Source: Deinococcales bacterium
Lineage (GTDB): Bacteria; Deinococcota; Deinococci; Deinococcales; JAAFIG01
Direction of reading: 5' to 3'
Length of the DNA: 19,662 nt
Assembly: GCA_043778225.1 (NCBI GenBank)
Contig: JAYWGM010000065.1
Location: 1 to 19,662 of the forward strand
The notes under the pieces are model-generated. The model was not told where the DNA came from. It saw only the letters and a program-made list of their open reading frames with translations, and made no database searches. Of the stretch, positions 153 through 19,662 are shown piece by piece. Numbering within the stretch: position 1 is the first letter of the stretch; each line of letters starts with the position of its first letter. Position numbers and translations under genes: made by a program.

Positions 153-437
153 ATGCTTGTGCCTCCAAAAGTGCTGAATGCCGAAATGCTTAAACTGGCT
201 GTGCCGTTGCTGTTTTCTAACCTTGCAACGGTATTGATTGGTGTGACCGATACCTATTTTGCCGGTCAATTGGGAACAGTGGCGCTCGGTGCGGCTGGCT
301 TAGGGGTGATGTGGTACGGCGGCGGTTTACTCGAGATTTGGCTTGCGCCATTTGTCTATTTGGCACTGCTGGCAGGGGTCTACTGGTGGCGCTGGCAAGC
401 GGGTCATTGGCGCACCGCCAGCCTTGGTGCGGTTTAA
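153..437 (+). pseudogene. Internally deleted MATE efflux transporter remnant (N-terminal helices joined in frame to the C-terminal tail)
   Basis: EMLKLAVPLLFSNLATVLIGVTDTYFAGQLGTVALGAAGLG matches the MATE N-terminus (lavP...l...vDt.f.g.lg..alaa.g). It runs straight into GGGLLEIWLA...WWRWQAGHW, which resembles the MATE C-terminal G.G..GiW...r.g.W tail. Only ~94 aa versus ~450 aa for a full MATE. Confidence 0.75.
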
Positions 438-1573
438 GGCAGCAGTCGTTTAACCGTCTCGAGTCCAAGCTGAACGGTGTCCTCGAGCAATTGCGGATTG
501 ACTTTGCTGTCGGCTGGCAGATGATAGTTAGGCTCATAACCACGCCAGAAAAATACGGCTGGTACATTTTCGGCTAAAAAACTGGCATGGTCTGAACCTG
601 CAAAATCGTTAAACTGCCCAATGTCTGGTCTGATGCCACGAACCAAGTCCGTTAGCTTACTCGAGCCACCGACCGACATTTTGTTGTTGACCGCCACCAT
701 ATCAAAATTAAGCATCGCTTCTAAGCCATCCAGCGTTTTGGTCGGCAGTGCCTGAACAAACGCATTTGAACCGATTAAACCATCTTCTTCGGCATCAAAA
801 GAAACAAACCAAATTTGTTTTAAGCGCTCTGGCGCTAACCGCCTTGCGATCTCGAGAATCGCGGCTGTGCCACTGGCGTTGTCGTTTGCGCCCGGACTGC
901 CTGGAACACTGTCAAAATGCCCACCAAGAATGAGCTTGGGCGGCTCGCTCGAGAACTTTGCAACGACATTGCGCCCAGTCACGGCAACCCGTCGCACCTC
1001 AGAAATGAGCCGCACCCGAACTTGGTTTGCCTCGAGCAGAACTGCGCCATCTATCCCCGAGACCGCCAGCACGGGAATCTGGAAATCGCCCAGAAAATTG
1101 GCGCTTAAACGCCCAGCCACACTGTTGACCAGCACCACACCGACTGCTCCAGCCTCAAGCGCGGCACGGGCTTTCTCGAGAAAAGTAATGCCACCGCGTT
1201 TGACCACGGCGATACGACTTTTAAGGTCTAAGCCTTGGTAATCGGCTCGAGAACCAAAATTGGGAATACGGATAGCTAGGGCTTCGATGTCGGAGATATT
1301 CGAGGAATACAACGTATCAGCTTCTAAGCGCTTGCCAGCCACGGTCACACTCGAGCCAAGGTCGCGCAGGCGTTCAAAAGAAAAGGTTTCGATACTGGCG
1401 TTTGCACCAATTTTTTTGTATTCGCCGACCAAATAGTTGGCGGCTCGCTCGAGGTTCTGACTGCCCGAAACCCGAGGTCCAAAACCAACCAGATTTTCGA
1501 CATCTCGGTTTGCGTCCTGAAAATTGATTGCCAATGCTGCACCACAAAATAAACCAAGCCACCAGAGTTTCAT
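434..1573 (-). CDS. Secreted M28-family aminopeptidase with PA domain
   Basis: Signal peptide MKLWWLGLFCGAALA. PA domain (RIAVVKRGGITFLEKARAALEAGAVGVVLVN). M28 metal motifs GGHFDS, GANDNASG, DAEEDGLIGS, NFDMV, SDH, YH. Start taken at ATG 1573, which has a TATTCT box 6 nt upstream. Confidence 0.92.
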   Translation of the reverse strand: MKLWWLGLFCGAALAINFQDANRDVENLVGFGPRVSGSQNLERAANYLVGEYKKIGANASIETFSFERLRDLGSSVTVAGKRLEADTLYSSNISDIEALAIRIPNFGSRADYQGLDLKSRIAVVKRGGITFLEKARAALEAGAVGVVLVNSVAGRLSANFLGDFQIPVLAVSGIDGAVLLEANQVRVRLISEVRRVAVTGRNVVAKFSSEPPKLILGGHFDSVPGSPGANDNASGTAAILEIARRLAPERLKQIWFVSFDAEEDGLIGSNAFVQALPTKTLDGLEAMLNFDMVAVNNKMSVGGSSKLTDLVRGIRPDIGQFNDFAGSDHASFLAENVPAVFFWRGYEPNYHLPADSKVNPQLLEDTVQLGLETVKRLLP

Positions 1574-1579
1574 GGTCTT

Positions 1580-1626
1580 AGAATACTCGAGCATCATGAC
1601 AAGCGCCTACTGACTTTGGTTAGAAT
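1580..1626. promoter_or_regulatory. Back-to-back -10 boxes for divergent leaderless genes
   Basis: TAGAAT (1621-1626) lies 5 nt before the manA ATG. TATTCT on the minus strand (1585-1580) lies 6 nt before the peptidase ATG. Neither gene has a Shine-Dalgarno, matching the leaderless arrangement common in Deinococcota. Confidence 0.6.
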
Positions 1627-1631
1627 ACCTC

Positions 1632-3010: not shown

Positions 3011-3015
3011 ACGCC

Positions 3016-4287: not shown

Positions 4288-4317
4288 TATGGACAGTGTG
4301 TTGCACTGTCCATATTA
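4285..4317. terminator. Probable bidirectional terminator hairpin between convergent units
   Basis: Perfect 14-bp inverted repeat TAATATGGACAGTG-tgttg-CACTGTCCATATTA between the permease stop and the stop of the valS 3' copy. Confidence 0.75.
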
Positions 4318-4325
4318 AAGTTGGG

Positions 4326-4486
4326 CTAAGCAAACTGCGCCAGCACTTTTTGCAAGCGCTCTAATTGCATTCCAAAATCCTCAATTCGCCTTTGTTCCTC
4401 GAGCAGAACGTCTTGTGGCGCATTCTTAAAGAAATTCTCGTTACTTAACTTGCCTTTGGCTTGCTGCACTTGCTTCTCGAGTTCAA
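4326..4486 (-). pseudogene. Stranded duplicate of the last 52 codons plus stop of valS
   Basis: Encodes ELEKQVQQAKGKLSNENFFKNAPQDVLLEEQRRIEDFGMQLERLQKVLAQFA*, versus ValS ...AVSKLSNENFVKNAPED.... Manual alignment to 6711-6871 gives about 27 mismatches in 161 nt, mostly synonymous, and 4 amino-acid changes. Confidence 0.95.
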
Positions 4487-5608: not shown

Positions 5609-6637
5609 TTAAGGATTCTCGAAAATTGAGAAATCGAATGTTGAAAATAATCTATTAAACGATGTTCCTTCATGACTTAAAAAAGGCACAAGATAATGGT
5701 ATATCCAATCGTTTTCATCACCCGTAATTGTAATTTCAATGATTCGAGCTTCTTCATTTATATCCCTTCTGATATAGCCATCATAATCCAGAATGCTAAT
5801 TTCCGTTTTTAGATCAGGGTACTTACAAACACGTTCAAACTTTTCCCAAACAGTTATTTTTTTAGAATTGCTGTTTTCACGATTGTCAATAATTTCTCCA
5901 AGCACTTGTCGAGTAATTCTTGGCAATACGCTTAATCCCTGAAAATAATTTCTTAAATCAGAAATAACCCTCTCAAAACCATCTATGTCCCAGTTGCTAT
6001 CAATACAAAACTTTTTGAGCTTACTGCATTCTCCCAATTGCTTTGATGGTCTTAATTCCATAAATTCCCCTAAATCTGTTGGGAATTCGCCATTTGAATT
6101 AGGCAATTCAAGTTCTATTCTCACTCGAGTAAGTTCACGCATGACAAACTGATAAATGCGCTCAAGCACATCTGGCTTAATTCCGATAAGTTTTTGGGAA
6201 AGCGTAATAATATCCCAAATATTTTCCTTTTCATTAAAATTAAGCACTTGACACAGCGTAGGATCTAACGTGTACGAGCCTTGTTTCTTACCGACAACTA
6301 ATACATATAAGGCTTCAATCTTGAATTGTTCAGAATTGGTCTTTCTTTCCTCAACTTTACGCAAAGTGTCATTTACTTTTTGCGTAGTACAAACAGTTGT
6401 GATTTGGATACCTATTTTGGAATTGGCATCGTACAAATCTATTCCTGCACTATTATTTCGCTCTCTGTTCGTATTTTCCAGATTTGAATTATCCAATTCG
6501 TTTAGGATAGTCATAAAAAAATCTTCAAGGACACGATGTAAATCAGTTAAGCCAATTTTTGCACGAAGTTCGGCACGTTCTGCAATGGTGGCAAAAGCAT
6601 CAATAATTTCACCGAGGTAACGTCCACTGAGTATCAT
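5609..6637 (-). CDS. SMEK-domain protein (putative defence nuclease effector)
   Basis: N-terminus ...LRAKIGLTDLHRVLEDFFMTILNEL...LENTN...NSAGIDLYD..SKIGIQITT follows the SMEK pattern (D.....E.F...LN....L.N.N.....gIDL.D......QiT). AT-rich. Confidence 0.8.
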   Translation of the reverse strand: MILSGRYLGEIIDAFATIAERAELRAKIGLTDLHRVLEDFFMTILNELDNSNLENTNRERNNSAGIDLYDANSKIGIQITTVCTTQKVNDTLRKVEERKTNSEQFKIEALYVLVVGKKQGSYTLDPTLCQVLNFNEKENIWDIITLSQKLIGIKPDVLERIYQFVMRELTRVRIELELPNSNGEFPTDLGEFMELRPSKQLGECSKLKKFCIDSNWDIDGFERVISDLRNYFQGLSVLPRITRQVLGEIIDNRENSNSKKITVWEKFERVCKYPDLKTEISILDYDGYIRRDINEEARIIEITITGDENDWIYHYLVPFLSHEGTSFNRLFSTFDFSIFENP

Positions 6638-6710: not shown

Positions 6711-9350
6711 TTAGGCGAACTGCGCCAAGACTTTTTGTAATCTCTCAAGCTGCATTCCAAAATCCTCAATCCGCCTTTGCTCCTCGAGAAGCACATCTTC
6801 TGGTGCATTTTTCACAAAGTTCTCGTTGCTTAACTTGCTTACGGCTTGCTGCACTTGCTTCTCGAGTTCAATTACTTTTTTCTTGCCTCGAGTCACATAT
6901 TCCGATGTGTCTATCAGCCCCTCGAGCGCTAGAATCACCTCGAGTCCTGGTGCTACACCACTTATTACTTTTCCTGTAACAGTTGTCAATTGAGCGCGTG
7001 CAAGCCGCTTAAATAGTTCAGAATTTCGTTGGACTGAATTTGCATTTTCCCCAGTAATCTCAACGTACAATTCTTTGCCAAGAGGTAACATTAGTTCATT
7101 GCGTAAAATACGAACTTGAGTTACAGCGGCACGAATTGAATCAAAGTCTTCTTCAAGATTATCAAAACTTGCATTGGCTTCAGGAAACTTTTCAAATGCC
7201 AATTTATTTTCTAAACTACCATTCGGATTCCCAAGAATAATTGATTCATACAAGTACGAAGTAATGAATGGCATAAATGGGTGAAGTAGTTTTAAGATAG
7301 CCTCTAAGAGGTTCATTAAGACCTTTAGTGTTGATTTTGAGCCTGCATCAATACCACGTTTAGCTGACTCAATATACCAATCACAAAAATCGTCCCAAAC
7401 AAATGAGTAAATAGACCGAATTGCTGCTCCAAGATCGAATGCGTCTAATTGTTCTCGAGACCTACGAATAACTCCATTCAGGCGTTTGACTATCCATCTA
7501 TCTGCTATGTCTGTGATGTCATTTTCCCCCCAAAACTCTTGTAATTCTGACCTTTGGTACTGCATTAAACTCATTTGAACAAAGCGCGACGCATTCCAGA
7601 GTTTATTGGAAAAATTCCGACCCATTTCGTAACGGCGCTCATCGTGTTTAATATCCTGCCCGCCCGTGCTGAGATACGCCCATGCAAAACGACAACCATC
7701 CACGCCGTATTTATCCATTAGCTCGAGTGGGTCAATGCCATTGTTTTTGGATTTCGACATTTTCTGACCCTTGGCATCCAAGTACAAACCATGCAGCATG
7801 ACGGTATGAAATGGTGCTTGACCAGTGAATTCAAAACCAGACATTTGCATTCGCGCCACCCAGAAAAACAGGATGTCATAACCAGTCACAAGCACATCGT
7901 TAGGGTAGAATTTAGCTAAGTCCTCAGTTTGGTCTGGGTAGCCCATGGTCGAGAAATTCCAGAGTGCCGAAGAGAACCACGTATCAAAAACATCAGGGTC
8001 TCGAGTTAAAGTCAAATGCGCGTAACGGGGGTCTTGGTCACAATCCAAATCTGGATTATCTAAGTCTGGCACATAGATTTTACCATCGGCATCGTACCAA
8101 GCTGGAATTTGATGCCCCCACCAGAGTTGCCGCCCAATTGCCCATTCACGAATATTCTCGAGCCAATCTTTGTTAACCTTGGTGTAGCGCTCCGGCACAA
8201 TTTTGATTCGCCCATCCTCGAGTGCATCCAGCACTTGCCTGGCGGGTTTATCCATTTTGCACCACCACTGGGTCATGACCATCGGTTCAACAGGCTCTTT
8301 AGTGCGCTCCGAAATACCCATGCTGACCTTATAATCTTTAGCCTCGAGCAATTCGCCCGATGCCTCGAGCGCCTTGACCACGGCTTTACGGGCAGCAAAA
8401 CGCTCCATGCCACGAAATTCTTCTGGTACAAGGTCGGAGGTGAGTTTCGCAAATTTATCAATCACACTGGGGGTGGCTAAATTATGGCGTAAACCAATCT
8501 CAAAATCTGTTGGGTCATGGGCTGGGGTGATTTTCAGGCAACCCGTGCCAAAATCCATTTCAACACTCGAGTCGGCAATAATTGGAATCAGCCTATCAGT
8601 AAGTGGAATCCGCACTTTTTGACCCACAAGGCTCGAGAAACGCGCATCTTCTGGATGAACCGCCACGGCTTGGTCAGCAAAAATGGTTTCAGGACGGACA
8701 GTCGCCACGTTCATCACGCCACTACCATCCTCGAGTGCATAGCTTAGGGTGTACATCTTGCCCTGACGATCCTCACGGTCAACTTCGAGGTCAGACAACA
8801 CCGTTTGCGCCACAGGATCCCAATTAACAATTTTTTCACCACGGTACGCCATGCCTTTTGCCACGTACTCCACAAAGGTACGACGCACAGCCCGAGACAG
8901 CCCAGCATCCATTGTAAAGCGTTCTCGAGACCAATCGGCAGAAACACCAAGTCGCGTGAGTTGATGCAAAATCGTACCACCGTGCTTTTCCTTAAATGCC
9001 CAGACTCGCTCGAGGAATTTCTCACGCCCAAGATCAGACTTATGCAGACCCTCGAGAGCAAGTTCTTTTTCGACCAGCACTTGGGTACTAATCCCCGCGT
9101 GGTCAGTCCCCGGCAAGTACAGTGCCTCGAAACCCGCCATGCGCTTAAAGCGGGTCAGGACATCAATAATCGTGTTATCGAGCGCATGACCAAGATGTAA
9201 ACTGCCCGTTACATTGGGCGGCGGAATAACAATTGTAAAAGCAGGTTTACTCGAGGTTGCATCGGCACGAAACGTACCCGGTTTAGCCCAGAGTTCTGCC
9301 CAAGAAGATTCGACAGCCGATGGTTCGTATTTAGTAGGTAATTCATTCAT
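6711..9350 (-). CDS. valS: Valine--tRNA ligase
   Basis: PPPNVTGSLHLGH (HIGH), GTDHAGISTQ, ATVRPET, GTGCLKITPAHD, RQLWWGHQIP, DVFDTWFSS, KMSKS, and a C-terminal coiled coil. AAGGAG RBS before ATG 9350. Confidence 0.99.
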   Translation of the reverse strand: MNELPTKYEPSAVESSWAELWAKPGTFRADATSSKPAFTIVIPPPNVTGSLHLGHALDNTIIDVLTRFKRMAGFEALYLPGTDHAGISTQVLVEKELALEGLHKSDLGREKFLERVWAFKEKHGGTILHQLTRLGVSADWSRERFTMDAGLSRAVRRTFVEYVAKGMAYRGEKIVNWDPVAQTVLSDLEVDREDRQGKMYTLSYALEDGSGVMNVATVRPETIFADQAVAVHPEDARFSSLVGQKVRIPLTDRLIPIIADSSVEMDFGTGCLKITPAHDPTDFEIGLRHNLATPSVIDKFAKLTSDLVPEEFRGMERFAARKAVVKALEASGELLEAKDYKVSMGISERTKEPVEPMVMTQWWCKMDKPARQVLDALEDGRIKIVPERYTKVNKDWLENIREWAIGRQLWWGHQIPAWYDADGKIYVPDLDNPDLDCDQDPRYAHLTLTRDPDVFDTWFSSALWNFSTMGYPDQTEDLAKFYPNDVLVTGYDILFFWVARMQMSGFEFTGQAPFHTVMLHGLYLDAKGQKMSKSKNNGIDPLELMDKYGVDGCRFAWAYLSTGGQDIKHDERRYEMGRNFSNKLWNASRFVQMSLMQYQRSELQEFWGENDITDIADRWIVKRLNGVIRRSREQLDAFDLGAAIRSIYSFVWDDFCDWYIESAKRGIDAGSKSTLKVLMNLLEAILKLLHPFMPFITSYLYESIILGNPNGSLENKLAFEKFPEANASFDNLEEDFDSIRAAVTQVRILRNELMLPLGKELYVEITGENANSVQRNSELFKRLARAQLTTVTGKVISGVAPGLEVILALEGLIDTSEYVTRGKKKVIELEKQVQQAVSKLSNENFVKNAPEDVLLEEQRRIEDFGMQLERLQKVLAQFA

Positions 9351-9369
9351 GATTGCTCCTTGCAAGTTG

Positions 9370-10713
9370 CTAACTTTCCAAAAGTAAAATGGCTGTTTCT
9401 TCTATTCTTTTTAGAATTAAAGAATTATCAAATTCGGGTCGAAATTTTTTATTAAATTTCAATAGATTGTATAGAAAGGAATTAAAATTTACTTTTTCTA
9501 CAAGTGAATCCAGTGATGCAAATAAATCGTTTCGTTCAGGAATTGAAGTGGCAATTCTTGAAAATACCCAGAAATCTTGATTCATTAAAAATTCTGGATT
9601 CATTAATTCACTGAGGATTTTATATCGTGGGAAAGTTTCAATTTTTCCTAAACCAATGCTTAGAATTCTTTTTAGAACAGCATCTGATCTAAATTTCCTA
9701 CCCTCGTTAGACCTAGTAAAATAGGTCTCAACACCATTATTTATTTTAAGTTTGTTTTCGGGATCATGTAAATCCGCAAACGTTTCAAACGCCCAATACT
9801 GCATATACTCATCTCGAGTAAACTGCTCCACTTTTGATGAGTTGATATTCAATCCAATTTTGTGAAGTTCTCGAGACGCGAGAAAGAGTATTTTTTTTGC
9901 CGTCTCTGCATCTTGAGACATTATTATTTGGTCATCGGAGTATCTAATATACTTCGAGCAATTTTCATCACAGATTTTTTTCATGTATAAGTCAAAATCT
10001 TGAAGATAAAAGTTTGATAGTATTCGTGAACTATCGCCAACTTCATCTTGTGGCAGACCGACAGTTTTTCTATAGTAGCCTTCTATTGGTCTGTTCCAGT
10101 TATGTAAGAAGTGAAAAAGCAAATCAACGTAAAACATTTGCTCCTTTTCAACAGTGTGCCGTATTTTTGCTTCTAAAAGGTTCAAATTAATAGAGTCATA
10201 AAAATTTGCAATATCAAACTTTAAGAAATACTGCAAATCTCCATCTGATGCCCATTCAAAAGCTCTTTTTTGAAAGTCTTTCCAATGTTCCGACCACTCA
10301 TACGGCGTATAAGTTCCGAATGGTATCCCTGAAACAGTTGATGTTAGTCTGCTAATTTCTTCTACTTCGCGTGACTTAATAGGATTATTTAAGGTCCAAC
10401 CGCCATAAGTTCCTTCTACTCTGTTTTTGGCGATGTTTTCCTGAATTCTTTCTACGCAAAAATAGTATAGGCAATTCTCTCGAAAGTGGAAACACGGAAC
10501 TATTCTTGAAACAAGATTATGTTTATTAAAAACAACGTAATTTCTAGGGGAATTAGGGGTAAATTTTTTATGTTTAACTTCAAAGTAAAGTTCTTTTAAG
10601 AATGCGGGTTTTATTGGAAGCTCATGCTTTTCGTATTCAATTAAAGTCTCCTTAGTGCTTTTCTTCCAAAAACTACTTGAAAAAATTCTAACAAACGCCT
10701 CTTCTTGTATCAT
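9370..10713 (-). CDS. Stand-alone reverse transcriptase, Abi/UG (defence-associated RT)-like
   Basis: RT motifs KFDIANFYDSI, GLPQDEVGDSSRILSNFYL, YIRYSDD and GLNINSSK, with a helical C-terminal extension. No intron maturase/HNH domain. AGGAG RBS. AT-rich. Confidence 0.88.
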   Translation of the reverse strand: MIQEEAFVRIFSSSFWKKSTKETLIEYEKHELPIKPAFLKELYFEVKHKKFTPNSPRNYVVFNKHNLVSRIVPCFHFRENCLYYFCVERIQENIAKNRVEGTYGGWTLNNPIKSREVEEISRLTSTVSGIPFGTYTPYEWSEHWKDFQKRAFEWASDGDLQYFLKFDIANFYDSINLNLLEAKIRHTVEKEQMFYVDLLFHFLHNWNRPIEGYYRKTVGLPQDEVGDSSRILSNFYLQDFDLYMKKICDENCSKYIRYSDDQIIMSQDAETAKKILFLASRELHKIGLNINSSKVEQFTRDEYMQYWAFETFADLHDPENKLKINNGVETYFTRSNEGRKFRSDAVLKRILSIGLGKIETFPRYKILSELMNPEFLMNQDFWVFSRIATSIPERNDLFASLDSLVEKVNFNSFLYNLLKFNKKFRPEFDNSLILKRIEETAILLLES

Positions 10714-10754
10714 TTCAATCTCCTGACTGCAAACTCAACCATTCAACATTTTTT

Positions 10755-10833
10755 CTCGAGGCTTGGGGCTTTGGCTGGTTGGGCAAGGCGTGCCTTGCCA
10801 CTACGGGTTTCTAGGCTCGAGCTTTGGCGCTTT
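10755..10833 (-). repeat. Cassette-boundary repeat R1 (hicB 3' end copy + GTAG-REP-like hairpin + CTCGAG)
   Basis: Minus strand: AAAGCGCCAAAGCTCGAGCCTAG-AAACCC-GTAGTGGCAAGGCACGCCTTGCCC-AACCAGCCAAAGCCCCAAGCCTCGAG. Matches 12975-13053 with 6 mismatches. Confidence 0.95.
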
Positions 10834-10834
10834 T

Positions 10835-12594: not shown

Positions 12595-12635
12595 GGACTC
12601 ACCTCAACTTTAATGTTTACCATAAAGGTCTTAAC

Positions 12636-12676
12636 CTATCCTGCTCGAGCTTGGGGCTTTGGCTGGTTGGGCAGGC
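12636..12676 (-). repeat. Cassette-boundary repeat R2 (truncated) plus 14-bp copy of the NUDIX 3' end
   Basis: Minus strand GCCTGCCCAACCAGCCAAAGCCCCAAG-CTCGAGCAGGATAG. The final 14 nt are identical to 18578-18591. Confidence 0.9.
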
Positions 12677-12678
12677 AG

Positions 12679-12758
12679 TTAAATCAATTCCACATCGTAA
12701 AGCCCAAATTTTTCTCGAGACTCCAAATCAAAATGTGTGCATCAAGAAGTAATTTCAT
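12679..12758 (-). pseudogene. Internally deleted vapC remnant
   Basis: MKLLLDAHILIWSLE (PIN N-terminus, ending at CTCGAG), then AAAAA, then an out-of-frame FGLYDVELI*. The 31 nt at 12678-12708 are identical to 17278-17308 at the end of the intact vapC. Confidence 0.9.
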
Positions 12759-12961
12759 TCCATGTACTCTTTCATGTCCTCGAGAGGCGCATTAAAATCA
12801 TCACTCATTTTCCAACCCTTTAGACTGCCGACCAAACCGCGTTTCTTGGGCTTAATTTCAAATTCTCGGTTTTCTAAGGTAATCACGACACTTTCACCGG
12901 CGGCGGCTTGTTGCAATAAAGCGACTAGGTTTTGTTGGGCTTCAATAATGCTTACGGTCAT
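12755..12961 (-). CDS. Phd/YefM-like antitoxin (DUF2281-like C-terminus), copy 2
   Basis: MTVSIIEAQQNL..L...A..GE.VVIT followed by GSLKGWKMSDDFNAPLE. AAGGAG RBS. Paralog of 17662-17877. Confidence 0.85.
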   Translation of the reverse strand: MTVSIIEAQQNLVALLQQAAAGESVVITLENREFEIKPKKRGLVGSLKGWKMSDDFNAPLEDMKEYME

Positions 12962-12974
12962 GGTTTTCTCCTTT

Positions 12975-13030
12975 CTCGAGGCTTGGGGCTTTGGCTGGTT
13001 GGGCAAGGCAAGCCCCGCCCCTACGGGTTT
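12975..13030 (-). repeat. Cassette-boundary repeat R3
   Basis: Minus strand AAACCC-GTAGGGGCGGGGCTTGCCTTGCCC-AACCAGCCAAAGCCCCAAGCCTCGAG, immediately followed by AAAGGAG RBS. Confidence 0.95.
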
Positions 13031-13399
13031 CTAGGCTCGAGCTTTAGCGCTTTGTTCGGCAAGTAGTGTTGCTACCATTTGATTCAAACTCACATTGTTC
13101 TGCTCGGCTTGTTCGGCTAAACGCTGATGCAAATTGCTGGGAAGGCGCACCACAAAACGCCCACTGTACTTTTTTTGCATCGCAGGTAATGGAATTGAGT
13201 TTCCAAGCTCGAGATTGACTTTGAGCCAAGCAAATTTTGCATCCTCGAGCATGGCTAGGGCTTCCTCGAGCGTATCGCCTTGCGAGACACAACCAGCTAA
13301 ATCTTTTATTTCCACCGAGTACCCAATGGCTTCGGGAATCAGGGTAATTGGGTATTTGAGGCTTAGGTAATACTCGAGTTTTGGTGTTTTATTTTTCAT
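13031..13399 (-). CDS. hicB: HicB family antitoxin (orphan; no hicA seen)
   Basis: LEYYLSLKYPI, DLAGCVSQGDTLEEAL and a C-terminal RHH YSGRFVVRLPSNLHQRLAEQAEQNNVSLNQ. Start at ATG 13399. Confidence 0.9.
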   Translation of the reverse strand: MKNKTPKLEYYLSLKYPITLIPEAIGYSVEIKDLAGCVSQGDTLEEALAMLEDAKFAWLKVNLELGNSIPLPAMQKKYSGRFVVRLPSNLHQRLAEQAEQNNVSLNQMVATLLAEQSAKARA

Positions 13400-14474: not shown

Positions 14475-14483
14475 AGATTACCT

Positions 14484-14510
14484 CTCGAGGCTTGGGGCTT
14501 TGGCTGGGCA
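14484..14510 (-). repeat. Cassette-boundary repeat R4 (short)
   Basis: Minus strand TGCCCAGCCAAAGCCCCAAGCCTCGAG, followed by AGGTAATCT-ATG of DUF1016. Confidence 0.9.
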
Positions 14511-14516
14511 ATCGTT

Positions 14517-15257
14517 TCATACTTTCTTGGCTCGAGACTTTTGATGTTGTCGTTTATGGGCGGCTTTGATTTTCTCGAGTAATTCCCGTGGCTTGCTTTC
14601 AAATGCAGCAAAAGTGCTTATATTGTCATGTTTCAAATGGATTTGTCCTTCGCCTGTGTTGCCTCGGTGCTGACCAGTGGAATAATACTTGTTGGTGGCT
14701 ATTTCACTCGAGCATAAAACCCAGTAACGAATAATGTCGCGCCAAACGGCTATCCAAATAAAAATATCACTGCAATCAGGTTTGACTTGTTGAAAATTCA
14801 TGTCAAATCGTTTGCTTGAACTCGAGGCTAGGGCTTTGACATAAAGGGCTTCTTGGCTATCAAAATCTACGGCTCGAGAGGCTTTAACTTCGATTTTGAT
14901 ATTACCCAGTAAAAAATCGTATTGCCCTGAGTAACTTGAGTCTAGTTTCTTAGTGGGTTTGACCAGTTCAGGAACGATTTCTTTCAAATGTCCTTGCGCC
15001 CAATTTTCTCCGAATCCTCTGGGCGAAGTCATTTCAAAAAGATGCAGGTACATATTTCGAGCTAAGTATTCGTCGCGCAGGTCGTAATAATCGTTTAGGG
15101 AAATTTTGTTGTTTCCCATCAGGCTGGAAATTAGAAATTCAAATTCGTTAAAGGGATACACCGAAAATAAATCATCGAGCCTTTGCATAATCTCTTCGCG
15201 TTTGGTTTGCTCTAATTGCTCGAGAAGTGTTTGTAAATGCTGTTTTAAGATTTCCAT
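14517..15257 (-). CDS. Putative type II restriction endonuclease
   Basis: PD-(D/E)xK-like YDFLLGNIKIEVKASR and NFQQVKP. Overlaps the end of the methyltransferase. GGAGAGG RBS before ATG 15257. Confidence 0.7.
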   Translation of the reverse strand: MEILKQHLQTLLEQLEQTKREEIMQRLDDLFSVYPFNEFEFLISSLMGNNKISLNDYYDLRDEYLARNMYLHLFEMTSPRGFGENWAQGHLKEIVPELVKPTKKLDSSYSGQYDFLLGNIKIEVKASRAVDFDSQEALYVKALASSSSKRFDMNFQQVKPDCSDIFIWIAVWRDIIRYWVLCSSEIATNKYYSTGQHRGNTGEGQIHLKHDNISTFAAFESKPRELLEKIKAAHKRQHQKSRAKKV

Positions 15258-17197
15258 GATGCCTCTCCGATGGTTTGTTGAATTAAACCAATTTCTTCTT
15301 CGGTTAAACAAAAAACTTGATATACCAAAGCATTGATTTCTGAGCTATCCGTTTTCTGCTCGAGTATCTGGTTCACTTTACTCTCGATTTCATCATGTAT
15401 TTCTGGCTCGAGAACCGGAAATGGTAATTTTTCAAGGTCGCCTCGCAGCACCTTATGGGTGGCAAATTTCCTGGTAAATAAAAACTGAAATAAGCTCGAG
15501 TTTAGGAATGCCATCACGACTTTAATACTCATATTTGGAATTTTTGGAATCAGGATATTGGCACTGTTGAGTGTTAGGGCTTGTGATTGATCAAATGCAA
15601 AAACCAGTTTTTTGGATATGAATTTGTACACCAGTTTTTCTTCGGCTCGAAAGAAGCGTTCTGGTGCGACTTGCTGAAATTCGTTTGGAGTAAATTCTAT
15701 AAATGTTTTGGCTTCTATTAGGTAAAATGGTTGTATGTCGCTGCCCCTAAAAATAGGCTCGAGATTTGGTGATTGCTCCAAGCGTAAGAACTTGGTGTTA
15801 TTGCCTGTGACAATGCCAAGCGCCCATTCGGAATGCCCGTGCAAGGTGAAATGCGGTGTGGTATAAATTTTTGCAATTAATGCTTGCTGGTCAGTATCTA
15901 CTTGTGTATCAAAAATAAAGTCTGAGTTTTTCAAAAATCTATTCTGATTGACTCGAGTCGTAATGTTCTTATCGTCTATTAGGTCAAGCCAATGGTCTTC
16001 TGGAATTGCTTTTTGAATATCCAAACGAATAACAGGTGTGAAAACCTCACTAAATTGCCGTCCCAATTCAATAATCCTGATTATTGAATTGTTCTTGAGA
16101 ATGTATGCTCGAATGTCCGCATGGGTTTTTATTTTCAAAATGGATTCAGGCAAAATAAAAGATAGTTCGCCGTTTTGTTTGAGTAATTGCAAGGATTTTA
16201 GTATAAACATGGAGAATGTCTCACCAGATTGAAGTATGCCCTCGAACTGCTTTGGGATACTCGAGTTTTTATATGCGCCCCAAGGCGGATTGGTGGCAAT
16301 CACATCAAAAAAACCTATCAGATGATTTGTTTCGCAAAAAAATTCTTCATTTGCAAGTTCAGAAAGTGCATCTAAACAAAAAATTCTAGGTGTAAATTCT
16401 GAAGTCTTAAATTGCAATAATAAGTTAATTCGAGCAATTTGTACGGCAATGCTGTCAATATCAAACCCATAAATTGATTCTGGTTGCAAAGAAAACACTT
16501 GCGCTGCGCCAATCAAGTATTTTCCAGTTCCACAACAAGGGTCTAAAAAATTACTGACATTTTCGAGCATCACATCTTTTAAGGCTTCTTGTACCAAATG
16601 TGTTGGGGTGTAATACGAACCCAAATTCGATTTGTTACCTTCGCTGCGTAAAGACTGATAAAGAATTCCAAGGAAATCATCAGTATTCTGCTCGAGAAGT
16701 GAAGCATAGACACTTGAATATAAGTCTCTGTGCTGAATCGTGCCAAAACTGGCTTGCCAATTGTTCATTTCTTTTTGAACCGAAACTCGAGTAAAAATGG
16801 CTTTGGTTAAGTCAAAAATATCGATTTGTGTACTTCTTTTTATCTCAAAATTCTGCTCGAGTTGACAAATAGTTGCTAAGAATAAAAGTGGTTCAAGCTC
16901 GAGTGCATTTTCCTTAAATTTTTGCACAATCAATTGCAGATTCCCGAGGTCATCAGCATTTGTCGCCGACTCAAGCGGAATAAAATTCTGTTTGGACTGC
17001 GCTTTATTTGCCCGAATATGCAGCTTCTGAATAGAACCATCGGAAATTTGGTTTTTAAGACTAATTAAACTGTCCTCCGAGAAAGCCAAGGGATGGGCAT
17101 TCACAGGACTGACGTACCCAGCCTTGACCCAATTGCGAATGGTCGCAGAGGAAACGCCTATGATTTGTGCAGCCTTATCTATGGAAACTTGATTCAT
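15245..17197 (-). CDS. N6-adenine DNA methyltransferase (gamma/TaqI-like) with N-terminal HTH
   Basis: GSYYTP, motif I FLDPCCGTG and motif IV NPPW. C-terminal TaqI_C-like TRD (GIVTGNN, FRGSDI, KLVYKFI, LNSS..LEKLPFP). N-terminal AAQIIGVSSATIRNWVKAG HTH. Confidence 0.9.
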   Translation of the reverse strand: MNQVSIDKAAQIIGVSSATIRNWVKAGYVSPVNAHPLAFSEDSLISLKNQISDGSIQKLHIRANKAQSKQNFIPLESATNADDLGNLQLIVQKFKENALELEPLLFLATICQLEQNFEIKRSTQIDIFDLTKAIFTRVSVQKEMNNWQASFGTIQHRDLYSSVYASLLEQNTDDFLGILYQSLRSEGNKSNLGSYYTPTHLVQEALKDVMLENVSNFLDPCCGTGKYLIGAAQVFSLQPESIYGFDIDSIAVQIARINLLLQFKTSEFTPRIFCLDALSELANEEFFCETNHLIGFFDVIATNPPWGAYKNSSIPKQFEGILQSGETFSMFILKSLQLLKQNGELSFILPESILKIKTHADIRAYILKNNSIIRIIELGRQFSEVFTPVIRLDIQKAIPEDHWLDLIDDKNITTRVNQNRFLKNSDFIFDTQVDTDQQALIAKIYTTPHFTLHGHSEWALGIVTGNNTKFLRLEQSPNLEPIFRGSDIQPFYLIEAKTFIEFTPNEFQQVAPERFFRAEEKLVYKFISKKLVFAFDQSQALTLNSANILIPKIPNMSIKVVMAFLNSSLFQFLFTRKFATHKVLRGDLEKLPFPVLEPEIHDEIESKVNQILEQKTDSSEINALVYQVFCLTEEEIGLIQQTIGEASWKS

Positions 17198-17220
17198 AAC
17201 TCCTTCTTCTTTGCGCGAGG

Positions 17221-17265
17221 CTCGAGATTAGGGCTTTGGTTGGGCAAGGCGTGCCTAGCCCCTAC
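17221..17265 (-). repeat. Cassette-boundary repeat R5
   Basis: Minus strand GTAGGGGCTAGGCACGCCTTGCCC-AACCAAAGCCCTAATCTCGAG, between vapC and the MTase. Confidence 0.9.
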
Positions 17266-17278
17266 GGTTCAGGACGGG

Positions 17279-17665
17279 TTAAATCAATTCCACATCGTAA
17301 AGCCCAAAGAATTCATCATCTGAAACCAAGGTGGCATTCTCGCTTATGGCTTGGGCTATCAGCATTCGGTCAAACGGGTCTTTGTGATGCAACGGCAAAG
17401 GCTTTAAGACATCCAAATGCTTGGTTTGAATCTCGAGAATCTGAAAATCGAGGTTTACTAGGTGCTGCTCGAGTTTTGTTAAACTCATTTCAAGTGGCAG
17501 ATTTAACTTACCCATCCCAGCTTTGATGCTCATTTCCCAAAGACTGGCAATGCTTACTAAAACCTCGTTAGAGCCGTCCTCAATGATTTCCGAGTGCCTT
17601 AACTTGCGTTTTGGATTCTCCTCGAGATGCCAAATGAGAACGTGGGTATCAAGTAAAATCCTCAT
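17279..17665 (-). CDS. vapC: VapC/PIN toxin
   Basis: LLDTHVLIW, SIASLWEMSIK.GK and LPLHHKDPFDRMLIAQA..E...LVSDD. ATGA-coupled to the antitoxin. Confidence 0.93.
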   Translation of the reverse strand: MRILLDTHVLIWHLEENPKRKLRHSEIIEDGSNEVLVSIASLWEMSIKAGMGKLNLPLEMSLTKLEQHLVNLDFQILEIQTKHLDVLKPLPLHHKDPFDRMLIAQAISENATLVSDDEFFGLYDVELI

Positions 17666-17877
17666 TCCATGTACTCCTTAAATTCTTCGAGTGGGGCGTT
17701 AAAATCCTCGCTCATTTTCCAGCCTTTTAAGCTGCCAAGCGCACCTCGAGTTTTCTTCTTGGTGGCAGTAATTTCAAAAGCCTGATTTTCTATGGTGACA
17801 ACAATTTTTTCGCCTTCAACAGCTTTCATAATCAGGGCTTCTAGGTTTTGTTGGGCTTCTAGTATGCTTACGGTCAT
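17662..17877 (-). CDS. Phd/YefM-like antitoxin (DUF2281-like C-terminus), copy 1
   Basis: MTVSILEAQQNL...GEKIVVT...GSLKGWKMSEDFNAPLE, directly upstream of vapC. Confidence 0.87.
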   Translation of the reverse strand: MTVSILEAQQNLEALIMKAVEGEKIVVTIENQAFEITATKKKTRGALGSLKGWKMSEDFNAPLEEFKEYME

Positions 17878-17890
17878 GGTTTTCTCCTTT

Positions 17891-17913
17891 CTCGAGGCTT
17901 GGGGCTTTGGGCA
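17891..17913 (-). repeat. Cassette-boundary repeat R6 (short)
   Basis: Minus strand TGCCCAAAGCCCCAAGCCTCGAG, followed by the same AAAGGAGAAAACCATGACCGTAAGCAT as after R3. Confidence 0.9.
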
Positions 17914-17935
17914 TTGGTTTAATTATGAAACAAAT

Positions 17936-18574
17936 TTATGAACTACTTTGCCAATTTTTTTCGAGAATTTGTGTACCACCAATTGAAGCTATTTCAGTAG
18001 GGGTTGCTTCTCGAGAATGCAGCCATGCGTTTATACTTACTTCAATTGCAAAGTCATCATTGAAAGAGCATAAAACACTGCCCGCCGAGCTATGCCAAGC
18101 CACTGAACCTCCAAAAGTTGCACATGGAAATGAAGTTTCCCAAGGCGGATATGATGGATATTCAAGGTTCAAATCTAAGATACTTCGCACAATATTTTTA
18201 CGGATTTCTCGAGGGATTTCAGATGGCGAATTATGTATCTGTCGAATCGGACAATCTAGTACAACTTGGATAATTGCATTTTTAACAACATCAAAATCTT
18301 CATCGTGAAAATGTGTCAAAGGTGGGAAATTATTTTCCTCGCGCATAAAACGGACAACAGAATAGAAAACCCAACCTGAATCTAAAGAATACTCGCGTTG
18401 CTGATTGCGATGATCTTCTATTTTCCTTGAGTACCAATTCAAAAGCGCAATCAATTCCCAAGTGCCATCAAAAATACTAATGGAACTATATTCAGAAAGG
18501 TTCTTTAGCTTTTCTGGAGAAGTCAGAATATCTTCGTAATGTGGGTAATCTTTTGAGTCAATGATAAGTTTCAT
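17936..18574 (-). CDS. Hypothetical protein (212 aa)
   Basis: AT-rich ORF whose ATG overlaps the NUDIX stop (ATGA). No motif recognised. Confidence 0.7.
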   Translation of the reverse strand: MKLIIDSKDYPHYEDILTSPEKLKNLSEYSSISIFDGTWELIALLNWYSRKIEDHRNQQREYSLDSGWVFYSVVRFMREENNFPPLTHFHDEDFDVVKNAIIQVVLDCPIRQIHNSPSEIPREIRKNIVRSILDLNLEYPSYPPWETSFPCATFGGSVAWHSSAGSVLCSFNDDFAIEVSINAWLHSREATPTEIASIGGTQILEKNWQSSS

Positions 18575-19488
18575 AAACTATCCTGCTCGAGTTTAGTTTT
18601 GAGTTCATCAATAAATTCAGCCATTTCCCAGTCAATTTGTGCTTCTGTTATTGGTACAAACGAATGCTTAAAAACCTTGCCTTTGTCATCTTCGCCGTCT
18701 GATACAACCCATTCCCAAGAATCCCTAGGCTCGAGGGTCTTAAACCAATAGTAATACCTGTCCTCCAGAAATTCGAGCGGCGAACCATTTTCTGGGTGTG
18801 CGCCTTTGAAGTAATAGTCTTGCCGCCCGAGAAAAACAGGATTCTCGAGACTTAGCCCGCTTTCCTCGAGAATTTCGCGCTTGGCGGCTTCTAAAGGCGT
18901 TTCGCTATCTTCAATGCCGCCTGCTGGTACGCCCATGCCGCCGTCTGGGTGTCCCGAGAAGGTCAGGACTTCGTGTCCTCGGGTGATGTAACAAATCACG
19001 CATGGGCGAATATTGGCGCGTGAAATCTGTAACTCGAGTCCGAGGTGTTTTCCCAATTCGGGTAGCATCGCATCCATATCGTAATGCAGTATCACATTCT
19101 CGAGTTTTTCAAAGCGGTGATAAAAAACGTATTTTTCTTCGGCGAAATGCTCCCACGTATCCCGTTTTTCAGTTGTCTCGAGCCACACAAAATGCCAGAC
19201 TGATGTACTCATCCCATTTTTGTATAAGCCAGAACCAAGATGCTGTTTCATTTCGAGGTTCTCGAGTCCTGTTTCCTCATGGGCTTCTCGAGTTGCGGCT
19301 TCAAAAACTGTTTCGCCAGTCTCGAGTCCACCGGCTGGGACTTGAATTCCTGCGGTTGGATACTTAGCTTCGTGTTCAAAGACTAAAATCTCGAGTCCTC
19401 GGGTGATGTAGACACAAACCCGTTGGCGTATGCCGTTGGCTCGGGCGTGTGCTTGGGCTGTCTCGAGATTGGCATACTTGGTAAACAT
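18571..19488 (-). CDS. Tandem double-NUDIX hydrolase
   Basis: Two Nudix boxes, GGLETGETVFEAATREAHEETGL and GGIEDSETPLEAAKREILEESGL, each preceded by a C.YITRG.E(I/V)L repeat. GAGG RBS. GTG at 19494 is an alternative start. Confidence 0.92.
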   Translation of the reverse strand: MFTKYANLETAQAHARANGIRQRVCVYITRGLEILVFEHEAKYPTAGIQVPAGGLETGETVFEAATREAHEETGLENLEMKQHLGSGLYKNGMSTSVWHFVWLETTEKRDTWEHFAEEKYVFYHRFEKLENVILHYDMDAMLPELGKHLGLELQISRANIRPCVICYITRGHEVLTFSGHPDGGMGVPAGGIEDSETPLEAAKREILEESGLSLENPVFLGRQDYYFKGAHPENGSPLEFLEDRYYYWFKTLEPRDSWEWVVSDGEDDKGKVFKHSFVPITEAQIDWEMAEFIDELKTKLEQDSL

Positions 19489-19491
19489 AAA

Positions 19492-19662
19492 CACCTCGTC
19501 CGTAAAATATGCGGACGAGATGGGTGCGTTGTCGCGCCGTCCCGCGTTACCACCGCTTTTCTCGAGCCGAGTTCTTAAAAAACTGGTCGAGCGCTCTTGC
19601 TACGCTGTGATGGGCGCTCCCAGAGGATTCTACTGGTGTGGGCGTGTGACCGCCCACCTGTT
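19492..19662 (-). promoter_or_regulatory. T-box riboswitch leader, probably Val-specific (5' part runs off the window)
   Basis: T-box sequence GCGG-UGGUAAC-GCGGGA (19556-19540) pairs with UCUCGU-CCGC (19520-19511) to form the antiterminator with a 7-nt bulge. The alternative hairpin CAUCUCGUCCG...CGGACGAGGUG (19522-19492) covers the NUDIX SD and is followed by UUUAUGUUU. UGGU is complementary to ACCA (A73, as in tRNA-Val). Candidate GUA specifier at 19633-19631. Confidence 0.85.

Follow-up and report, generated by a model that had tools for sequence, protein, structure and literature searches.

CTCGAG is an iterated palindrome of a Deinococcales family, with a probably passive link to DNA rearrangement

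The window analysed here is the whole 19,662-nt stretch of contig JAYWGM010000065.1 from a Deinococcales bacterium (GCA_043778225.1), whose genome, labelled G000, belongs to an uncultured Deinococcales family and comprises 4.03 Mb in 107 contigs at 89% completeness. It holds an array of defence cassettes beside valS, several gene-end copies and deletions, copies of an element that we call R, and CTCGAG sites throughout:

1..98 (unstranded): assembly overlap, shared with the ends of contigs C66, C92, C22, C36 and C78 and with an internal copy on C70
316..318 (+): MATE deletion point, 1052-1053 nt lost relative to G007, G003 and G001; CTCGAG 330 lies outside the event
330..19566 (unstranded): 128 sites at 6.5/kb, belonging to the genome-wide iterated palindrome CTCGAG
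4327..4486 (-): valS relic, a copy of the last 160 nt; shared CTCGAG 4476 lies 5 nt inside the inner edge
5609..6637 (-): SMEK gene, 1 CTCGAG, GC 0.35; the G003 and G001 orthologues also have 1
6712..6871 (-): 3' end of the valS gene itself, sharing 84% identity with the relic and containing CTCGAG 6861
9370..10713 (-): reverse-transcriptase (RT) gene, 2 CTCGAG, GC 0.33
10752..10833 (-): R1, with hicB-end copy, hairpin, CCAACCAGCCAAAGCCCCAAGC and CTCGAG (10755) at the downstream end, upstream of the RT gene
12643..12652 (unstranded): left copy of GCTCGAGCTT, also the switch point from NUDIX-end-like sequence to the R2 core
12653..13034 (-): indel segment with R2 core, vapC remnant, DUF2281 and R3 hairpin, present in G000
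12678..12708 (-): vapC 3'-end remnant of 31 nt; deletion point 12708, CTCGAG 12714 on one side only
12972..13053 (-): R3, upstream of DUF2281, with 93% identity to R1 and terminated by CTCGAG 12975
13035..13044 (unstranded): right copy of GCTCGAGCTT, within the 3' end of hicB
14483..14507 (-): core of R5, upstream of a YhcG-family gene and terminated by CTCGAG 14484
17221..17267 (-): Rx, a hairpin and degenerate R core, upstream of a methyltransferase gene and terminated by CTCGAG 17221
17888..17914 (-): core of R6, upstream of a DUF2281-vapC pair and terminated by CTCGAG 17891
19566..19662 (unstranded): assembly overlap of 97 nt with the end of contig C84, starting on the last base of a CTCGAG

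The 128 exact sites between 330 and 19566 amount to one per 154 nt, in agreement with the initial annotation, which had counted about 125-130 (roughly one per 155 bp) and judged this far above chance; dinucleotide-preserving shuffles of the window have a mean of 2.54 sites and a maximum of 7, and 0 of 200 attain 128. The genome as a whole holds 24,877 sites (6.17/kb, about one per 160 bases, about 27-fold above base composition), CTCGAG being its most frequent hexamer with 0.6% of all positions, and the density of the window is the ordinary genome average. The Markov-corrected enrichment that had been proposed as a check gives genome-wide observed/expected ratios (O/E) of 26.7, 47.5, 15.1 and 3.6 at orders 0 to 3, and the order-4 ratio of 1.16 was set aside as uninformative because the pentamers CTCGA and TCGAG are almost confined to CTCGAG. 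All 18 other genomes searched in the same family (f1, five genera) carry 4.3-6.8 sites/kb, compared with 0.03-2.9 sites/kb in 12 genomes from four other families of the order. The over-representation is genome-wide and family-wide, not that of a single strain.

That the abundance reflects protein or codon need (Leu-Glu pairs, codon bias) instead of a DNA-level word is scarcely credible. On an ORF-based proxy gene set the LE frame does account for 59% of coding sites (13,217), and the spacings show a period of 3, but 9,153 sites fall in the remaining two frames (4,653 and 4,500), 2,507 are intergenic, and coding density (6.18/kb) equals non-coding density (6.15/kb). Moreover, the LE dipeptide occurs at 2.33 times expectation in G000 and EL at 0.97 times, and 69% of LE dipeptides (13,240 of 19,177) are written CTCGAG, so the word has shaped the proteins and not the reverse. 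The use of several frames, which had been read in the window as unexplained by protein need, is a property of the genome. Sites are also about 1.3-fold denser near gene ends and stop codons, which inflates proximity at cassette borders.

At orthologous positions CTCGAG is kept three times more often than other hexamers. In valS, 12 of 13 sites are common with G003 (48% of control hexamers) and 6-9 of 13 with other genera (15-21% of controls), while across 209 kb aligned with G006, 900 of 1384 sites are conserved (65%, against 21% of controls). Where a site is not shared in the G006 alignment, at least three letters differ in 43.7% of cases compared with 21.2% in controls, an excess that hints at concerted change unlike simple point substitution. 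Spacing, analysed at short range only since G000 lies in 107 contigs, shows repulsion, distances below 10 nt occurring at 0.12 times the exponential expectation; 123 pairs stand at a 7-nt spacing, and a metagenome contig (X3) has a 6-nt GCTCGA insertion.

The sparse stretches described in the initial annotation are all as stated: SMEK has one site, RT two, and there is none in the middle of AAA_21 (11591-12398) or in the AT-rich part of valS (6945-7453). No DNA match for the RT gene is listed among the 18 family genomes searched. The further proposal that density dates cassette arrival is not borne out: in three species SMEK carries a single site, while PIN and HTH of the same cassette have 5-9/kb, and G006 DNA that cannot be aligned to G000 has 5.7 sites/kb compared with 6.4 in alignable DNA. 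Density as a clock of residence is not supported; low density flags AT-rich imported genes in these genomes and is unfit for dating them.

CTCGAG had been reported at or within about 12 nt of a list of rearrangement junctions, and each listed class of junction indeed has one edge within about 13 nt of a site, but only 6 of 9 edges lie at 13 nt or less. The nearest site is 5 nt from the inner and 71 nt from the outer edge of the valS copy, 6 nt and 82 nt from the two sides of the vapC deletion, 13 nt from the MATE deletion point, 3 nt (HSP edge) or 0 nt (switch point) from one edge of the NUDIX-end copy and 22 nt from the other; the 82-nt R/hicB-end unit has sites at 3 and 12 nt, and the R cores have one at 0-3 nt from one end and at 18-41 nt from the opposite end. 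The permutation of junction distances suggested earlier places this proximity above background (P=0.0036, with junctions and a 12-nt threshold chosen after the sequence had been seen), the background probability of a site at no more than 12 nt being 0.19. Around the PIN-HTH-SMEK insertion, the CTCGAG at 6861/4476 occurs only in those compared genomes that have the insertion, a restriction that a passive link through abundance leaves unexplained. At the MATE deletion CTCGAG stands at neither edge in three relatives, which have ATCGAA or ATTGAA at the site of G000, and by sequence comparison the MATE and vapC deletions evidently did not use CTCGAG. We rejected 1-98 and 19566-19662 as biological junctions; both are assembly overlaps, and the supposed junction at 19566 is uninformative on recombination.

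One event does coincide with the word. A 392-nt indel (12653-13044) is flanked by the 10-nt direct repeat GCTCGAGCTT (12643-12652 and 13035-13044), and the segment is missing from G007 (L004 1678-1757) and from an X3 contig, both of which retain a single CTCGAG there. The X3 contig is 95-96% alike over the parts aligned to the window, its joint running from 12607 to 13035 with 31 letters between. The event has the form of a short-direct-repeat (microhomology) indel, in that GCTCGAGCTT bounds the long form on both sides and is retained once in the short form, with unrelated flanks; neither the MATE nor the vapC deletion is of this kind. Two further joints were noted in this comparison: 12975>17279 reflects a different cassette order in a more abundant relative, and 17398>12709 was read as a mosaic alignment to a paralogous toxin-antitoxin cassette of a more abundant relative and not as a rearrangement of G000. 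X4 covers next to none of the window, and metagenome contig scans with conserved valS words gave no match.

The claim that the R copies end at CTCGAG is borne out in every context of the window, where the core of this array-specific element terminates on the word in 6 of 6 copies; what comes next downstream falls into five different sequences, one of them common to R3 and R6. Relatives have several further copies with CTCGAG directly after the core and a few without it or with it farther off, and in the X3 contig R homology stops exactly at G+CTCGAG. The opposite, upstream edge is never at CTCGAG. An Rfam search of the window gave no match, so the hairpin corresponds to no described RNA family. 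The constant CTCGAG end belongs to one sequence family and does not represent many independent events.

Over the genome, a shared CTCGAG lies flush with 18 of the 273 ends of low-copy repeats, from 16 of 109 families, where 3.8-6.7 are expected, a 3- to 5-fold enrichment (Poisson p 1e-7 to 2e-4), and among repeats of at least 90% identity the count is 7 of 57 ends against 1.4-1.8; simulated alignment bias yields only a 1.06- to 1.17-fold excess. These events are few (18, 11 or 7) and imperfectly independent, and several are paralogous coding segments in which the apparent limit of homology could be set by CTCGAG being conserved. More than 90% of low-copy repeat ends have no CTCGAG, and when the 5016 unique repeat ends are pooled, 9.4% have a site no more than 12 nt away, compared with 18.0% of random positions. 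One high-copy family makes up 2267 of the 2567 repeat pairs in the self-comparison of G000. The raw flush count over all de-duplicated ends (42 of 1484, 11.2 expected) was dropped in favour of the family-filtered counts because tandem arrays and a repeat-protein family (C28/C90/C17) inflate it. Breakpoint mapping against same-genus genomes was likewise dropped, because G006 is about 75% identical with synteny broken gene by gene and breakpoints could not be placed to a few nucleotides. CTCGAG supplies 8.9% of chance 6-mer identities and is contained in 20.9% of chance 8-mer identities.

A search for an enzyme that acts on the word gave about 18 candidate methyltransferase genes in G000, seven of which were tested for distribution and none of which is present in all 19 genomes. 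The best placed are L044 and L043: besides G000 the genus has seven genomes, of which six carry L044 orthologues at 82-88% identity (7 of 8 counting G000), and other genera have none; L043 has orthologues in six other genomes, one a fragment (7 of 19 with G000). Sequence does not reveal which word a methyltransferase recognises; for the methyltransferase of the window, the PDB returned only generic N6-adenine methylases, M.TaqI not being among the 11 hits at E<=0.001, and NCBIfam gave no specificity-level names for 13 restriction-modification candidates. For an XhoI-type restriction-modification system acting on CTCGAG the outcome is negative but weak: its endonuclease family (PF04555) was not found in the 89% complete G000, by a search that also gave no match in control genomes. 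A very-short-patch repair ratchet of the Dcm/Vsr type is not supported either: Vsr (PF03852) was not found in the same assembly, and the T:G deamination neighbour CTTGAG/CTCAAG, at O/E 1.41, is not depleted.

We consider it probable that CTCGAG is an iterated palindrome of this family whose link to rearrangement is passive, through abundance. The word is imposed on the DNA itself and does not follow from protein need, and it is retained once present; the imposing cause, a step that we infer, may be selection for some function of the chromosome or a repair ratchet with a bias. Illegitimate recombination at short homologies and slippage would then hit CTCGAG more than any other word, because it occupies 0.6% of positions and supplies about 9% of chance 6-nt and about 21% of chance 8-nt identities. 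A minority of junctions, such as the 392-nt indel and the constant end of R, would form at CTCGAG and most elsewhere. Since the word supplies 9-21% of chance short identities, a comparable share of microhomology junctions is expected, and a recombination role should be claimed only if the share exceeds that range. As for the initial annotation's proposal that CTCGAG acts as a recombination microhomology, the GCTCGAGCTT indel, the R end and 18 of 273 repeat ends speak for it in a minority of events; against it stand the deletions in MATE and vapC, as do over 90% of repeat ends. The proposal is partly supported: the word occasionally provides the short shared sequence for DNA loss or joining, but it does not mark most rearrangements. 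It is unlikely that there is no link at all and that proximity arises from the background of 6/kb, gene-end enrichment and alignment effects. The high chance proximity, the depletion at pooled repeat ends, the excess around stop codons, the two deletions off CTCGAG, the assembly overlap at 19566 and the post hoc choice of junctions and threshold all agree with such a reading, but the window permutation, a flush enrichment that exceeds simulated bias and persists at 90% identity or more, and breakpoints inside GCTCGAGCTT in two genomes do not.

An active site, at which a dedicated enzyme (an XhoI-like endonuclease, repair nickase or recombinase) cuts, nicks or synapses CTCGAG and so promotes cassette insertion and excision, the defence array beside valS having been put together at R|CTCGAG, seems to us quite unlikely. 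The constancy of the R end before five distinct sequences, its recurrence in relatives with a few exceptions, the exact break in the X3 contig, the flush enrichment, the valS duplication edge with CTCGAG in insertion-bearing genomes only, and the 7-nt pairs together with the GCTCGA insertion would all suit such an enzyme. However, neither PF04555 nor PF03852 was found in G000 (within the limits of completeness and search given above), none of the seven tested methyltransferases is family-wide, many CTCGAG sites inside cassettes are unused, the R element at its upstream edge, the valS copy at its outer edge and both deletions are off sites, and so are over 90% of repeat ends. Similarly unlikely, in our estimate, is a putative DNA-level system that would introduce CTCGAG through concerted short-patch changes and for which the word would serve as the crossover point in joining defence and toxin-antitoxin cassettes to R beside valS; if true, CTCGAG would become the first iterated palindrome for which a role in recombination could be demonstrated.

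The analogy with HIP1 drawn in the initial annotation is a sound one. The marks of the HIP class, namely over-representation by at least an order of magnitude, similar coding and non-coding density, conservation and lineage-wide presence, are all found for CTCGAG. Like HIP1 (GCGATCGC) and the alternate HIPs of cyanobacteria, as described in the available portions of PMC4390886 and PMC5861425, it is a GC-rich palindrome over-represented tens of fold, occurs between genes and within them in all frames, is conserved at orthologous positions above control oligomers and scarce in imported DNA, and lies in ungapped columns of the alignments checked, as expected if it spread by substitution. In the same portions, the class is said to have a word- or core-specific methyltransferase wherever the word is abundant (Elhai 2015, PMC4390886) and a kilobase-scale periodic spacing (Xu et al. 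2018, PMC5861425). CTCGAG differs in being a hexamer and not an octamer, in being about six times denser (one per 160 nt compared with about one per kb in the accounts available), in belonging to another phylum, Deinococcota, in that the 7 methyltransferases tested, out of about 18 candidates, included no cognate orphan enzyme, in that its one-off neighbours are not depleted, and in that the genome is otherwise nearly without 6-bp palindromes. HIP1 proper, with its GATC/CGATCG methylation, was rejected: the word is another, GATC has an O/E of 0.13 and CGATCG 182 copies, and the lineage is Deinococcales, not cyanobacterial.

Restriction-modification and defence genes reportedly insert with long target duplications (Nobusato 2000; Furuta 2010). 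The locus resembles such insertions in that the valS 3' end is doubled (160 nt) around the PIN-HTH-SMEK insert with valS left whole, and in the NUDIX and hicB gene-end copies at cassette borders; it differs in that only one of the two valS duplication edges is near CTCGAG. For excision, the nearest parallel is the smtB gene of Synechococcus PCC 6301, where a HIP1-flanked 352-bp segment was lost (Gupta 1993), and such excision was reportedly promoted just as well in E. coli (Robinson 1997), according to the accessible part of PMC13756078 for both studies. As in that account, a segment of a few hundred bp (here 392 nt) lies between two palindrome copies, one of which is left in the short form, and the GCTCGAGCTT-bounded indel would fit host-independent short-repeat recombination. 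The present event differs from smtB, as there described, in that it is deduced from comparison of genomes and a metagenome contig, which does not give its direction (insertion or deletion), and was not watched in culture, and in having a shared repeat of 10 nt, in which 4 flanking letters extend the palindrome. HIP1 has also been proposed as an uptake watermark (PMC13756078, in the part available). CTCGAG resembles the uptake or self-marking words (DUS/USS) in being a short word found throughout the genome of one lineage and rare in foreign DNA, and differs from them, as far as the sources at hand describe them, in being palindromic, 6 nt long and far denser. To our knowledge, the purpose of HIP1 is a thirty-year-old question studied in one phylum only. 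A second, independent iterated palindrome, a different word six times denser in Deinococcota with no obvious cognate methyltransferase, could separate the general features of such words from cyanobacterial accidents.

The CTCGAG enrichment claimed by the initial annotation was borne out by our counts, which gave 128 exact sites in the window against a mean of 2.54 and a maximum of 7 in dinucleotide-preserving shuffles. The excess is a genome-wide property and the window is not special: in the source genome G000 (107 contigs, 4.03 Mb, 48.7% G+C) CTCGAG is the commonest hexamer, with 24,877 sites or 6.17/kb, and the window has 6.5/kb. Correcting for sequence composition genome-wide gave an observed/expected ratio (O/E) of 26.7 from base composition and, under Markov models of first, second and third order, 47.5, 15.1 and 3.6; a fourth-order model left only 1.16, because CTCGA and TCGAG are found almost only within CTCGAG. 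As there is no strong extension in the flanking bases and 68% of TCGA tetramers sit within the word, the hexamer itself is the unit. Almost every other 6-bp palindrome is extremely avoided in this genome, and of the 64 palindromic hexamers over 30 have an O/E of at most 0.1; in 4 Mb there is one copy each of GACGTC, AGGCCT and GGGCCC, 3 of GGCGCC, 24 of GAGCTC and 131 of GGCC.

Among public genomes, the closest valS loci (84% and 71-72% amino-acid identity) belong to metagenome-assembled genomes with Deinococcota or Deinococcales in their titles; those of Meiothermus and Deinococcus come next (58-61%). All 18 other searched genomes of the family, from five genera, carry 4.3-6.8 CTCGAG/kb; the range is 0.03-2.9/kb in 12 genomes from four other families of the order. 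GAGCTC avoidance is also family-wide, 15 of the 18 having fewer than 30 copies, compared to 62-2162 in other families.

The claim that frame usage rules out protein need holds as well, since coding and non-coding densities are equal (6.18/kb and 6.15/kb, ORF-based gene set) and all three frames are occupied (13,217 coding sites as Leu-Glu, 4,653 and 4,500 in the other two). The Leu-Glu dipeptide stands at 2.33 times expectation, compared to 0.97 for Glu-Leu, and 69% of Leu-Glu pairs are spelled CTCGAG, which indicates that the word shaped the proteins and not the reverse. Sites less than 20 nt apart repel each other strongly (0.12 and 0.53 times what an exponential predicts), with no pairs at 6 nt and 123 at 7 nt; spacings of 75-200 nt are in excess and those of 400-1000 nt too few. 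Sites are also conserved between genomes at orthologous positions. Of the 13 G000 sites in valS, 12 are common to G003, a genome of the same family, compared to 48% of control hexamers, and 6-9 of the 13 are common across genera, compared to 15-21%. Over 209 kb aligned with another relative, G006 (~75% identity), 900 of 1384 sites (65%) are common, compared to 21% of controls. At the non-shared sites, 398 of 910 (43.7%; controls 21.2%) differ by at least three letters, and the most frequent partner is TTAGAA, an AT-rich spelling of Leu-Glu; these multi-letter differences fit a strong directional pressure on intermediates or a concerted change. Between G006 (contigs C23 and C45) and G000, gene order within the genus is broken almost gene by gene, adjacent G006 segments mapping to different G000 contigs, and 55% of 388 kb aligns at a mean DNA identity of ~75%.

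As for agents that might maintain the word, its one-off neighbours are not depleted (CTTGAG/CTCAAG O/E 1.41), and no Vsr gene (PF03852) was found in the 89%-complete G000 genome. Nor was an XhoI-family endonuclease (PF04555) found there, a weak result given that the search was silent in control genomes too. Elhai's criterion for iterated palindromes, as given in PMC4390886, is a cognate methyltransferase. G000 has ~18 methyltransferase candidates; none of the 7 checked for distribution, the window's TaqI-like enzyme included, is family-wide, so that no cognate enzyme has emerged so far from these 7; specificities are unreadable from sequence. Among the best candidates, one (L044) has orthologues of 82-88% identity in six of the seven other genomes of the genus (7/8 with G000), and the other (L043) in six other genomes, one a fragment (7/19 with G000). 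The window's enzyme lies in the following cassette.

14517-17197, minus strand: cassette with a 650-aa N6-adenine methyltransferase that has an HTH at its N terminus and a specificity domain like that of TaqI

An adjoining 264-aa ORF has, by eye, a D...E-x-K-like motif without a family match. Orthologues occur only in G003 and in another relative, G001 (68% amino-acid identity), the G003 copy with an in-frame TAA.

The initial annotation further proposed that CTCGAG marks rearrangement junctions as a recombination microhomology. By background alone, a position in the window has a 0.19 chance of a site within 12 nt, and the junctions lie as follows.

4327-4486 and 6712-6871: valS 160-nt duplication, 84% identical; inner edge 5 nt from a CTCGAG common to both copies
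valS duplication, outer edge: 71 nt from the nearest CTCGAG, only one edge thus being near a site
vapC deletion: CTCGAG 5-6 nt away on one side and 82 nt on the other, not between two sites
MATE deletion: lacks 1052-1053 nt that G007, G003 and G001 have; 13 nt from CTCGAG 330

In a permutation preserving the spacing of paired edges, five of five junction classes had an edge within 13 nt of CTCGAG (P=0.0036), as did six of nine edges (P=0.0036), the junctions and the 13-nt threshold having been picked post hoc and two of the five classes being one repeat unit. CTCGAG 330 is not part of the MATE deletion, since in the three relatives neither edge has a site and its position reads ATCGAA or ATTGAA. 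Two further edges were rejected as assembly overlaps with other contig ends: the 19566 edge (0 nt from CTCGAG) and the first 98 nt of the window (>200 nt from CTCGAG). At valS the end copies look swapped: the functional G003 end (pair at L001 9556-9715 and 11974-12128) is 91% identical to the G000 relic, and the G003 relic matches the functional G000 end at 81%. Within the genus, valS is 84-88% identical over its first two-thirds; the remaining third (6711-7579), which is AT-rich, aligns badly from one species to another.

The cassettes between NUDIX and valS are bordered by an array-specific element, R.

9366-19500, minus strand: variable array of defence and toxin-antitoxin cassettes (RT; AAA_21 + DUF4276; DUF2281 relic; YhcG + HicB; TaqI-like methyltransferase + PD-ExK-like ORF; DUF2281 + vapC)
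10776-10806, 12996-13026 and 17237-17267: R hairpin copies, also present in comparison loci L001, L002, L004 and L005

Cassette order and content differ in each relative examined, G006 having almost none and G003 the methyltransferase cassette only. R stands at every cassette border and reads, on the gene strand, CCGTAGGGG, a hairpin, then CCCAACCAGCCAAAGCCCCAAG(C)CTCGAG. Full or core-length copies in G000 occur at this locus only, with just short or hairpin-like partial matches elsewhere. Six copies in the window include the core, and there is one hicB-end look-alike; in all six, homology ends at CTCGAG, with five different sequences beyond (R3 and R6 have the same one), and in relatives CTCGAG directly follows the core in several more copies and is absent or farther away in a few. 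Five different gene ends adjoin the other edge, which never lies at CTCGAG, except at 9-12 nt in the hicB context. Hairpin pairing is kept while stem letters vary between genomes (GGCAAGGC/GCCTTGCC, GGAGGGG/CCCCTCC, GGGAGGGT/ACTCTCCC); Rfam has no family matching it. In G006 and G007 a similar hairpin and then a T-run directly follow the valS stop, like an intrinsic terminator.

Within the array, 392 nt of G000 lie between two copies of GCTCGAGCTT (12643-12652 and 13035-13044) and contain the R2 core, a vapC remnant, DUF2281 and R3. In G007 (L004 1678-1757) this segment is missing and the AAA_21 upstream region runs into the hicB end via one CTCGAG; a contig from metagenome run X3, of a different study (95-96% alike over the aligned parts), has the same short form. 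This indel is a clean event at the GCTCGAGCTT repeats, either an insertion or a deletion. Also in the array (12749-12975 and 17279-17386), a contig from runs X1 and X2, ~88-90% alike, joins DUF2281 directly to a vapC end with 5 other letters between, at three times the depth of the window's own contigs in X1; the samples seem to contain a second, more abundant relative whose cassettes stand in another order.

Genome-wide, a self-comparison of G000 gave 5016 unique repeat ends, of which 9.4% lie within 12 nt of CTCGAG compared to 18.0% of random positions, and one high-copy family makes up 2267 of the 2567 repeat pairs. Subsequent flush counts took only CTCGAG common to both repeat copies in register. 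De-duplicated ends gave 42 of 1484 with a shared site at offsets 0-3, compared to 11.2 expected from the interior; this raw count was set aside, as inspection found tandem arrays and one repeat-protein family among the ends. With tandem pairs and families of more than 6 pairs excluded, 18 of 273 low-copy ends (16 of 109 families) are flush with a shared CTCGAG, where interior density predicts 3.8 and genome density 6.7. Among pairs of at least 85% identity the count is 11/130, and among those of at least 90% it is 7/57 compared to 1.4-1.8 expected. Residual identity beyond the ends is 0.37 for flush and other ends alike. The enrichment is real, ~3- to 5-fold, in under a tenth of repeat ends, because alignment bias yields only 1.06-1.17-fold in simulations (random breakpoints, observed lengths and divergences, CTCGAG protected or unprotected) and the rise in site density around stop codons is only ~1.3-fold (8-9.4/kb over the final 60 nt of genes and the first 20 nt past the stop, compared to 6-7/kb). 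There are also 73 same-contig direct-repeat pairs of 40-500 nt, 0.3-30 kb apart (for example C104 5572/11949, C44 75797/77274, C81 1544/3466 and C40 11072/12973), several of which look like gene-end or upstream-region duplications around inserted genes, as at valS.

The microhomology proposal therefore stands in part: the window permutation, the 18 flush ends and the 392-nt indel speak for it, and the MATE and vapC deletions and most repeat ends against it. An active use of CTCGAG at junctions would suit the strikingly constant R edge, and also the valS duplication edge, where among the compared genomes CTCGAG occurs only in those with the insertion (in both copies in G000 and G003), the insertion-free genomes reading CTCTAA (G006), TTCTAA (G004), TTCGAG (G007) and TTCAAA (G013). 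We nonetheless consider such a use unlikely. From squared hexamer frequencies, CTCGAG makes up 8.9% of chance 6-mer identities between two G000 positions, and 20.9% of chance 8-mer identities contain it; any short-identity joining process would, by abundance, land on CTCGAG about as often as seen. With CTCGAG at 7-12% of low-copy repeat ends, these shares mean that a passive role suffices and a dedicated enzyme is unneeded. The best reading of the junction link is thus a passive consequence of CTCGAG abundance, which would agree with the host-independent excision suggested by a title in the reference list of PMC13756078 (Robinson 1997), according to which HIP1, the iterated palindrome of cyanobacteria, promotes excision equally in E. 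coli.

The suggestion that CTCGAG density dates cassette arrival found no support. SMEK has a single site in each of G000, G003 and G001, at 77-81% identity, and its cassette partners PIN_3 and HTH_17 have 5.3 and 9.1/kb; 1-kb windows over 388 kb of G006 average 5.71 sites where unaligned to G000 compared to 6.43 where aligned; inside G+C classes the two kinds of window do not differ consistently, and of the 99 unaligned windows only 10 are site-poor. These contrasts indicate that low density flags AT-rich imports and not residence time. Density climbs with G+C, from 0.3/kb below 35% to 6.9/kb at 50-55%. For the reverse transcriptase and a 212-aa ORF, with two sites each, the searched relatives offered no counterpart at the DNA level, as would fit a recent arrival.

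9370-10713, minus strand: 447-aa reverse transcriptase (RVT_1), G+C 0.33, its end 4 nt ahead of the start codon of valS; the 18 family genomes searched have no listed DNA match

Taken together, the abundance of CTCGAG is confirmed, the junction idea is partly right and the dating idea is unsupported. The full-text literature searched, mostly outside subscription journals, contained no description of CTCGAG as an iterated palindrome. CTCGAG is a member of the HIP class, a hexamer, in Deinococcota, and the analogy with HIP1 drawn by the initial annotation is sound: the word is over-represented, in coding and non-coding DNA alike, kept at orthologous positions and family-wide. It differs from HIP1 in that no cognate methyltransferase has so far been found among 7 of ~18 candidates, and in being six times denser. 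In form, the 392-nt CTCGAG-bounded indel resembles the HIP1-flanked 352-bp excision at smtB (Gupta 1993, as cited in PMC13756078).
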